A stretch of 22,011 nt of DNA from a virus (lineage: Duplodnaviria; Heunggongvirae; Uroviricota; Caudoviricetes), in the IMG/VR virus record IMGVR_UViG_2609459830_000015. The stretch is one strand, 5' to 3'. Shown here in pieces: positions 15,065 to 15,748 of this stretch. The notes beneath the pieces were generated by a model. That model ran no database searches and was not told where the DNA came from. It saw only the letters and a list, made by a program, of their open reading frames with translations. The position numbers were made by a program, and so were the translations under genes. The number at the start of each line of letters is the position of its first letter. Position 1 is the first letter of the stretch.

Positions 15065-15335
15065 GTACTGCCAGGCAGACGAAGAGTGGATTCAGCAGCA
15101 GTTACAGGGGCTGCCTCCGTCACTGAGACGGAAGGTTGCCCTGAAATATGCGGAGGTATACGAAATCACTTTTGACGCTGAGCCTGTTTCATTCCGCAAG
15201 GAGAACAGAGCAAGGCACGAAGCAAACACAAGGCTCCGCCTGTTTGTAAGAAATCAGGGCAGAGCTTTACAGGGGTATACAGCCGAACCTCCCCTGGCTG
15301 GATCGCAATCGCGCTCCTCATTGTTTCGGGTTTAA
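15027..15335 (+). CDS. Hypothetical early protein in the cII-equivalent position (102 aa)
   Basis: ORF overlapping the end of the cro-like gene in another frame; purine-rich ribosome-binding site (GGAGGTGAAGGG) upstream. No recognisable motif. Confidence 0.45.
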   Translation: MSQNYVQTEMPSRYCQADEEWIQQQLQGLPPSLRRKVALKYAEVYEITFDAEPVSFRKENRARHEANTRLRLFVRNQGRALQGYTAEPPLAGSQSRSSLFRV

Positions 15336-15748
15336 AGGTACCCGAACAGAAGCAGGCTTAAAGGTGCCTGTTCAGGTTGGCAACCAACTGACCCAACTCC
15401 TCATGTGTACTAGGGAAGTAGTACGTTTTTATGGGGAAGAGGGTAAGGGGGGTAAGGGGGGATTGGGTGTTGGGGCAGGAATAGGGTCTTTTCCAACAGG
15501 AGAGATCCATTGGTTAAGTAGATCACTGTCTTAAGGGCGCAATTTAAAAAAACGCCCGTATCAGCAAGGTAGTACAAAGCGCTCAGGCGCTGAGAAACGA
15601 AAAGGGTTCTTCCTGGAAGAGTGATTTTTCAGAGGAGCTGAATCAGAAGGGAGGCTGGCAGCCTTTGGGGAGGCCACCAGCCATGTGAGGGGGAATCCAT
15701 GAAAACCACATCACAAAATTATTATCTCATCAGCACGGGAGCTGCACA

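Follow-up and report, generated by a model that had tools for sequence, protein, structure and literature searches.

How the early rightward transcript is coupled to replication is a question raised by the many enterobacterial prophages in which lambda O and P are replaced by a module of an SF2 helicase and a Toprim primase; neither the origin of this module nor such a coupling is described in the literature and annotated records that we examined. The locus considered here belongs to a stretch of 22,011 nt (IMG/VR record IMGVR_UViG_2609459830_000015, Caudoviricetes; hereafter the window), an E. coli prophage that by DNA comparison is 100% identical over this stretch to strain E110019 and whose early region resembles that of Salmonella phage Fels-1. 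Upstream of its helicase gene, at the entrance to a long untranslated leader, stand two adjacent hairpins with the same 8-nt loop. What are these hairpins, in which molecule do they act, and what could they do for the replication genes behind them? We find that they are conserved, that selection holds the sequence of their loop and not that of their stems, and that they fold as RNA. The best reading, which is one by analogy, is that they work in the manner of boxB without belonging to the nut family.

Hairpin A (15325-15346, + strand) is recognizable in the sequence, in minimum-free-energy folds and with a covariance model, and has a 7-bp stem, TTCGGGT[TTAAAGGT]ACCCGAA, with its octaloop at 15332-15339. 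Hairpin B has the core CAGGC[TTAAAGGT]GCCTG (15353-15370, + strand) and its octaloop at 15358-15365. A preliminary description of the sequence had drawn attention to both hairpins and to their identical loops, all of which are as it gave them, and the stem of hairpin B can be extended to seven pairs with one G.U (AGCAGGC/GCCTGTT, 15351-15372). TTAAAGGT occurs three times in the window against 0.66 expected, and a pair of Watson-Crick hairpins with a stem of at least 5, a loop of 8, the same loop sequence and a separation of at most 60 nt never arose when the window was simulated 300 times with a first-order Markov model. Both hairpins are part of the minimum-free-energy fold of the local region as well as of the whole 451-nt leader, which is itself unusually structured (z = -3.6), with free energies of about -10.1 kcal/mol for A and -10.9 kcal/mol for B. 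The covariance model of the motif scores them at 37.3 and 36.4 bits; these adjacent + strand sites are the only two that it matches in the 22-kb window, where the next best match reaches 11 bits.

Neither Rfam 15 nor the literature that could be searched contains the motif. At gathering and permissive thresholds, region 15250-15800 gave nothing better than E = 2.4 (16 bits), the sole gathering-level Rfam match in the window being to STnc100, and a literature search with the loop sequence returned unrelated matches only. Two simple readings of the loops were rejected. CsrA/RsmA binding hairpins require GGA in the loop (ANGGA), and here AAGG is followed by a variable base, mostly U. A Shine-Dalgarno role in front of an open reading frame (ORF) starting at GTG 15364 fails because the lengths of the G runs downstream differ by single bases among relatives.

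Relatives were gathered by three routes: DNA similarity among sequenced phages (Fostie, YP3, ENT39118, phi467 and Fels-1), a downstream anchor in IMG/VR (119 loci), and a protein query with the ORF upstream of the hairpins, taking one genome per species (20 loci). The stems change greatly between clades and stay complementary. Those of the window's clade are TTCGGGT/ACCCGAA and ACAGGC/GCCTGT; Pantoea, Trabulsiella guamensis and an Enterobacter metagenome-assembled genome have ACCGGGC/GCCTGGT and CTGAC/GTCAG, Kosakonia has ACCGGGC/GTCTGGT, Fels-1 CCGGGC/TCCCGG, the L028-type clade TTCGGAC/GTCTGGA, Serratia CCAGGC/GCTTGG and a Klebsiella phage CACCGGGC/GCCGGGTG. Counterparts of hairpin B in other clades include CTGAC/GTCAG, CCGGGC/GCCCGG and CCAGGC/GCTTGG. 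Pooled into an alignment of 28 distinct hairpins, these stems have 93.4% of cells paired, as compared with 25-48% when the 3′ partners are slid, and changes on both sides are found in five of the seven stem pairs; none of 500 shuffles reached the observed covariation score. Loop positions 1, 2, 4, 5, 6 and 7 of the same alignment do not vary, at least 90% of rows have A at position 3, and position 8 is unconstrained, while the loop variation seen outside the alignment is confined to a single A-to-G change at position 3 or 4, giving the consensus UU(A/g)(A/g)AGGN. The proposal that the stems vary under a constraint of complementarity with the loop held constant thus passed the covariation test in relatives, and so, for the two hairpins, did the more general suggestion of a structured RNA element or binding site. 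Selection acts on the sequence of the loop, not on that of the stem.

The variable positions also tell in which strand and molecule the structure is kept. G.U outnumbers A.C by 26 to 1 (counted as cells, which are not independent events), and 93% of pairs form in the + strand against 81% in the - strand. Natural variants rich in wobble pairs fold well as RNA (-6.5 to -11.2 kcal/mol, z -3.1 to -4.0), whereas their DNA versions, at -0.3 to -2.9 kcal/mol, are no more stable than shuffled sequence. The G.U excess and the folding of wobble variants as RNA but not as DNA indicate that the element acts as RNA, and therefore in the rightward early transcript; that it is an RNA structure maintained by selection we regard as very likely. 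The same data bear on the idea that the hairpins are single-stranded DNA structures of a replication origin, ssi-like signals for loading primase or helicase onto the displaced non-template strand. The element does adjoin a probable origin region upstream of the helicase and primase genes, with a G tract, paired palindromes and an A-run, and the displaced strand would have the same sense as the RNA, so that strand bias by itself does not exclude it. However, the L028-type, Kosakonia and Serratia variants are stable as RNA and, at the DNA energies just given, unstable as DNA; the hairpins lie upstream of the G tract, outside the stretch that an R-loop would displace; and there are relatives with the same helicase and primase that have no hairpins. 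We consider this origin structure quite improbable.

In related prophages the motif keeps the same place. Prophages of Escherichia, Salmonella, Citrobacter, Enterobacter, Klebsiella, Pantoea, Kosakonia, Serratia and Trabulsiella have one or two hairpins there, as do phages Fels-1, Fostie, YP3 and two Klebsiella phages, with a single site (in one or two copies) per genome; the Fels-1, Serratia, Klebsiella and L028-type clades have one hairpin only. The 20 loci of the ORF route come from Trabulsiella, Citrobacter, Enterobacter, Pantoea, Kosakonia, Pseudocitrobacter, Pseudescherichia, Superficieibacter and Serratia, and 19 of these loci, found through the ORF alone, have the hairpin. All true relatives with an ORF identity of 63% or more to that of the window have one or two copies directly 3′ of the ORF. 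Among the 119 IMG/VR loci the true relatives likewise have it, and the six zero-match anchor loci that were inspected are unrelated chance matches. A search of viral contigs for paired TTAAAGG loops was too unspecific to add to this, the matches listed comprising one family member, one repetitive coding region and one weak hairpin from outside (L291, 14 bits). Of the two copies, hairpin B is conserved better, with 98% pairing in 14 close relatives. Variants of the stem of hairpin A stay paired, but this stem is eroded in the Fostie/YP3 subclade. The preliminary description had listed a third small hairpin, GTTGG-CAA-CCAAC (15376-15388, + strand), which is indeed present in the window but is not a conserved feature: it is 81% paired among the 14 relatives, breaks without compensation and is missing from the consensus fold.

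The ORF that marks the site (15027-15335, + strand) encodes a small three-helix protein of the PHROG 852 family with an invariant basic helix, RKENRARHEANTRLR. The family is large and unannotated (281 clusters at 50% identity) and has members in 199 phage records, those of Stx2a-converting, Klebsiella and Vibrio phages among them; its protein has no Pfam or PDB relative, and a confident three-helix model gave generic fold matches only. Most relatives end the ORF at a TGA about 10 nt upstream, and the hairpins of relatives begin 4-20 nt 3′ of the stop codon. In the window this TGA reads TCA (15318-15335 region), so that the ORF gains five codons and stops at a TAA (15333-15335) inside loop A; both stop versions are common among relatives. 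Phages Fostie (L001) and YP3 (L003) have no cro-like gene annotated between the repressor region and the PHROG 852 ORF (about 2797-3141), which would make the latter the first gene of the rightward operon there.

The hairpin is limited to one clade of the wider PHROG 852 family, and it is hence an accessory of the replication module rather than part of its core. Other sequences, often another hairpin, replace the UUAAAGG hairpin in Erwinia, the L143-L152 group, Stx2a phages, Serratia phage OS31 and L018, and the covariance model found no match in the hairpin-less relatives scanned. Such replacement is what might be expected of passive hairpins without sequence-specific recognition, serving as a 3′ stabilizer of the cro-ORF message, as a 5′ stabilizer of a processed replication message or as a non-canonical terminator. 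An unrelated hairpin often occupies the place in hairpin-negative relatives (Stx2a phage, L143 and L164 clades), and the position right behind a stop codon would suit these roles. They leave unexplained, however, why the loop is constant across genera while every stem position changes, and neither hairpin is followed by a U-tract, A being followed by CAGAAGC and B by CAGGTTGG; a scan for intrinsic terminators on the + strand listed neither. A purely passive role therefore seems to us improbable.

A fixed loop on free stems, present in one or two tandem copies and selected at the RNA level, argues instead for a docking site. We propose that hairpins A and B represent one cis-acting RNA motif, so far undescribed, of the pR-type transcript: a 7-bp stem of free sequence presenting the octaloop just 3′ of the PHROG 852 ORF, where transcription enters the G-rich leader. 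The loop would be a sequence-specific docking site for a factor, probably a protein, in a boxB-like architecture; two copies, or one in many relatives, would load this factor onto the nascent early transcript; and the factor would then decide the fate of the untranslated leader downstream. The favoured effect would be read-through of Rho-dependent termination starting at the pyrimidine-rich spacer behind the hairpins, the alternative being an effect on the stability or folding of the leader RNA. We infer that a factor binds, what kind of factor it is and what it does downstream, and the parts of the proposal differ in strength. That the loop is a site for a specific ligand we judge slightly favoured; the fuller statement, that a trans-acting factor docks there and thereby affects the leader carrying the replication genes, is tentative though quite plausible; and control of read-through, including a possible role in overcoming Rho-dependent termination, is doubtful. 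If a factor does bind, it would form a new RNA-protein pair in phage early regulation.

The arrangement behind the hairpins is what suggests Rho. A pyrimidine-rich, G-poor spacer, delimited by composition and by folds (15381-15406, + strand), follows them, C exceeds G in the leader only within 15360-15420, directly behind the hairpins, and C/U-rich spacers occupy the equivalent place in other clades. In the predicted folds the spacer itself is base-paired to the 5′ half of the G tract. Several points weigh against the proposal. The leader as a whole, and strongly so outside 15360-15420, has an excess of G over C, which is poor for Rho. The closest clade (the 14 close relatives) is too little diverged to contain double compensatory changes, so that the evidence for covariation comes from comparing clades with each other and one copy with the other. 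No ligand candidate emerged: the PHROG 852 protein is the only one nearby with an arginine-rich helix, and it keeps this helix in relatives that lack the hairpin, which indicates that the helix is neither tied to nor specific for it. Finally, the restriction of loop variation to A-to-G changes, together with the co-occurrence of the hairpin with CCUUUUCC downstream, would also fit contact with another RNA instead of a protein.

This last point leads to the main rival of the docking site, a long-range RNA-RNA contact in which AAAGG of the loop would pair with a conserved C(C/U)UUUUCC further down the leader (CTTTTCC, 15488-15494, + strand, just beyond the G tract), bracketing or remodelling the G-rich segment between them in a way that recalls the alternative folds of ColE1 RNA II that control primer formation. 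Nearly all clades with the hairpin have CUUUUCC behind the G tract, where relatives without the hairpin have a GGCTTAGCCAGAG-type sequence, and all loop variants, being A to G, could still pair with U. On the other hand, the contact amounts to 5 bp, neither side varies enough for a test of covariation, and the co-occurrence is essentially that of one clade boundary. Moreover, Klebsiella phage ST16-OXA48phi5.3 has the hairpin together with CTCTTCC, CUUUUCC has predicted partners in nearby G-rich segments as well, and the invariant UU at loop positions 1-2 would stay unpaired. We regard such a contact as unlikely, though worth keeping in view.

Contact with a separate RNA appears less probable still. 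Two identical loops exposed in a leader, with a G tract behind them that recalls RNA II, could be a loop-loop kissing target for a trans-acting or antisense small RNA containing ACCUUUAA, as in the pairing of P4 CI RNA with seqA/seqC or of ColE1 RNA I with RNA II. The sole ACCTTTAA in the 22-kb window, however, lies on the leftward strand at 11252-11259, inside a SPFH/Band 7 coding region, a count at chance level; no promoter-like site was found nearby on the - strand, and the - strand version of the element pairs clearly worse. We give this possibility very little credence.

If the docking site is preferred, does it belong to one of the known antitermination families, as the preliminary description supposed in suggesting a nutR/tR1- or put-like element? 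The position that it gave has held. A pR-like promoter lies upstream of the hairpins at 14726-14754, and these come after the cro-like gene (14777-15064) and the small ORF and before the helicase and primase genes, which is where lambda, P22 and phage 21 place the short nutR hairpin of their early right transcript. A lambda-type nutR would have hairpin A or B as the boxB of an N-like antiterminator, acting with boxA and Nus factors to read through a tR1-like terminator. As in boxB, a conserved loop is presented on a covarying stem, a pyrimidine-rich stretch stands behind it as rutB does in lambda, and CGCTCCTCA (15312-15320), 5 nt upstream of hairpin A, resembles boxA (consensus CGCTCTTTA-like). 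The loop UUAAAGGN, however, has 8 nt and is unrelated to known boxB loop sequences, lambda having a GNRA-like pentaloop, and here the hairpin is often duplicated in tandem. No conserved boxA was found, CGCTCCTCA being coding sequence that varies among relatives as CGTTCCTGA, CGATCCTGA and GCGACTAA.

The other parts of a nut system were looked for as well. PHROGs and Pfam revealed no N-like protein among the nine early proteins scanned, and the first pL gene (13410-13829), with which the leftward operon begins, encodes an HTH_3/CII-like regulator. A scan of the leftward operon for arginine-rich proteins returned only those of PHROG 852, PHROG 1737 and PHROG 1886, none of which tracks the hairpin across relatives. 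No leftward copy of the nutL or putL kind was detected in the window with the covariance model, and none recurs in about 120 related loci. One nutL candidate, GCATTA[TTAATGGC]TAATGC (about 12901-12920, - strand), whose loop differs from the motif by one base, belongs to the leftward operon and precedes a gene (12485-12844) with an arginine-rich stretch at its N-terminus. It was rejected because it breaks an invariant loop position, sits inside a possible ORF of 32 codons and is lineage-specific, being present at 10 of about 120 loci and matched at the DNA level by one collected phage (phi467), although others in that collection carry the hairpin. It is probably a coincidence.

As to terminators that an antiterminator of this type would read through, the scan found no intrinsic one on the + strand from 15390 to the end of Q, the earliest strong ones being those at 19684-19704, 20008-20025 and 20373-20391; Rho-dependent termination may occur in the untranslated leader. 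The next hairpin behind the element, GTACTA...TAGTAC followed by T5, was considered as a tR1-like terminator and rejected, since its stem is conserved without covariation and a second copy lies 151 bp downstream. Its T-run is not conserved, and the absence of the run in Fels-1, Pantoea and Klebsiella also speaks against a terminator. A nutR of the lambda type is accordingly very unlikely.

The put RNAs are about 70 nt long with two long stems, the first of them in a triplex, form a putL/putR pair downstream of PL and PR, and act on the zinc-binding domain of RNA polymerase beta′ without protein factors; in HK022, putR forms part of the early right transcript, at several hundred nt from its promoter (PMC9378689). 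A put-like RNA that modifies the polymerase itself would suit the two adjacent stem-loops of an early right transcript, at a comparable distance from the promoter, and the failure to find a dedicated factor gene. Unlike put, though, the element consists of 22-nt units with 7-bp stems and identical loops, occurs as one site per genome and not downstream of both early promoters, is reduced to one hairpin in the clades named above, and has no intrinsic terminators to suppress. Thus the nut and put assignments both fail here, and the latter we think highly improbable.

What, then, lies in the leader that a docked factor would govern? The non-coding stretch covers about 15336-15748 (+ strand), some 410 nt, and the part beyond the spacer (15407-15748) holds palindromes, the G tract, CTTTTCC and a short upstream ORF. 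No promoter-like site was found in a scan of the + strand between the pR-like promoter and the helicase gene. The leader is probably the origin region of the helicase-primase operon, as a candidate. Its most conspicuous feature is a purine/G tract on the + (non-template) strand, GGGGAAGAGGGTAAGGGGGGTAAGGGGGGATTGGGTGTTGGGGCAGG (15433-15479), where the GC skew rises to +0.92. Most relatives examined, among them Erwinia, Stx2a-converting phages and Serratia phage OS31, retain its core GGGGGG-TAA-GGGGGG, and the tract is missing in the most distant loci of the ORF family (L153, L155 and L170-L173). Helicase and primase genes follow the region in the enterobacterial relatives that are annotated or were read through. 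Single-base variation in the lengths of its G runs shows that the tract is non-coding; by its sequence it is prone to R-loop or G-quadruplex formation, and it may be a transcript-primed origin for the helicase-primase module.

This invites a different account of the hairpins, as the recognition module of such an R-loop origin. The pR transcript would display the UUAAAGG loops, recruit the SF2 helicase, the primase or the PHROG 852 protein, and then enter the G tract, where an RNA-DNA hybrid or G-quadruplex would mark the start of replication. ColE1 RNA II similarly has stem-loops upstream of a strongly G-rich stretch of transcript that enters the origin; in contrast to RNA II, the loops here are identical, no equivalent of the antisense RNA I was found, and the origin, which would lie beside the replication genes, and its R-loop are only predicted. 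We consider this function of the hairpins improbable. Were it correct, lambdoid prophages would have an origin resembling that of ColE1 or T4, and so would the Eru1-like module that takes the place of lambda O and P in some Shiga-toxin phages; an element acting together with the G tract would point to transcript-primed initiation in temperate enterobacterial phages. Relatives of the module's small protein are found in Stx2a-converting phages. The element is 22 nt long and its loop can be altered with no change to a protein, which offers a specific, mutable handle on the coupling of transcription and replication. Another small hairpin tied to replication genes, the translational operator of T4 gene 43, likewise has a specific 8-nt loop, on a 5-bp stem; that operator overlaps the gene's ribosome-binding site, whereas the hairpins of the window are about 370 nt upstream of the helicase start.

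Flanking the G tract are two copies of an 18-bp palindrome, GTACTA-N6-TAGTAC (15407-15424) and, 151 bp downstream with two mismatches, GTATCA-N6-TAGTAC (15558-15575). Their sequence is conserved across clades without covariation, and in Erwinia and L145 two tandem copies lie upstream. Judged by sequence, they look like sites for a dimeric protein that binds double-stranded DNA, rather than an RNA structure or terminator. Elsewhere in the leader, a small hairpin, TGGTTAAGTAGATCA (15511-15525), has its outer pair changed from U-A to A-U in 5 of 14 relatives and is the only other leader site with a clear compensatory change. GGTTCTTCCTGGAAGAGTG (15605-15623), with the inverted repeat CTTCC-N-GGAAG, is nearly invariant in all clades and is kept even in shorter leaders, which measure about 200-220 nt from the G tract to the helicase gene. 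A 19-codon upstream ORF, MKTTSQNYYLISTGAAQWS followed by its stop codon (15699-15758), runs in another frame over the helicase start codon (15749); it is preceded by GAGGGGG and conserved almost base for base, Fels-1 included, and may provide translational coupling or a leader peptide.

The genes around the element complete the picture of an early right region. A LexA-type repressor (13965-14657, - strand) is followed by the cro-like gene, of the YdaS family (+ strand), the PHROG 852 ORF, the leader, the SF2 (DEAD/ResIII) helicase (15749-17407, + strand), the zinc-ribbon/Toprim primase (17409-18377, + strand), a 285-aa protein without assigned function (18377-19234, + strand) and Q (19225-19626, + strand). 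The helicase-primase pair has the same architecture as the Eru1 replication unit, which was described for non-lambdoid Shiga-toxin phages (PMC8044961); neither that paper nor its sequel mentions the non-coding region. On the - strand, a strong terminator, GCCCACT-CTTA-AGTGGGC followed by T9 (13929-13946), lies directly 3′ of the repressor gene and is followed by a good promoter-like site, TTGACG-17-TATTAT (13870-13898), an arrangement suggesting that the repressor gene is transcribed separately from the leftward early genes. At the other end of the region, downstream of Q, the match to the small RNA family STnc100 (20176-20348) is full length at 108 bits and is followed by the strong terminator at 20373-20391, a position that suggests a short Q-regulated late leader transcript.

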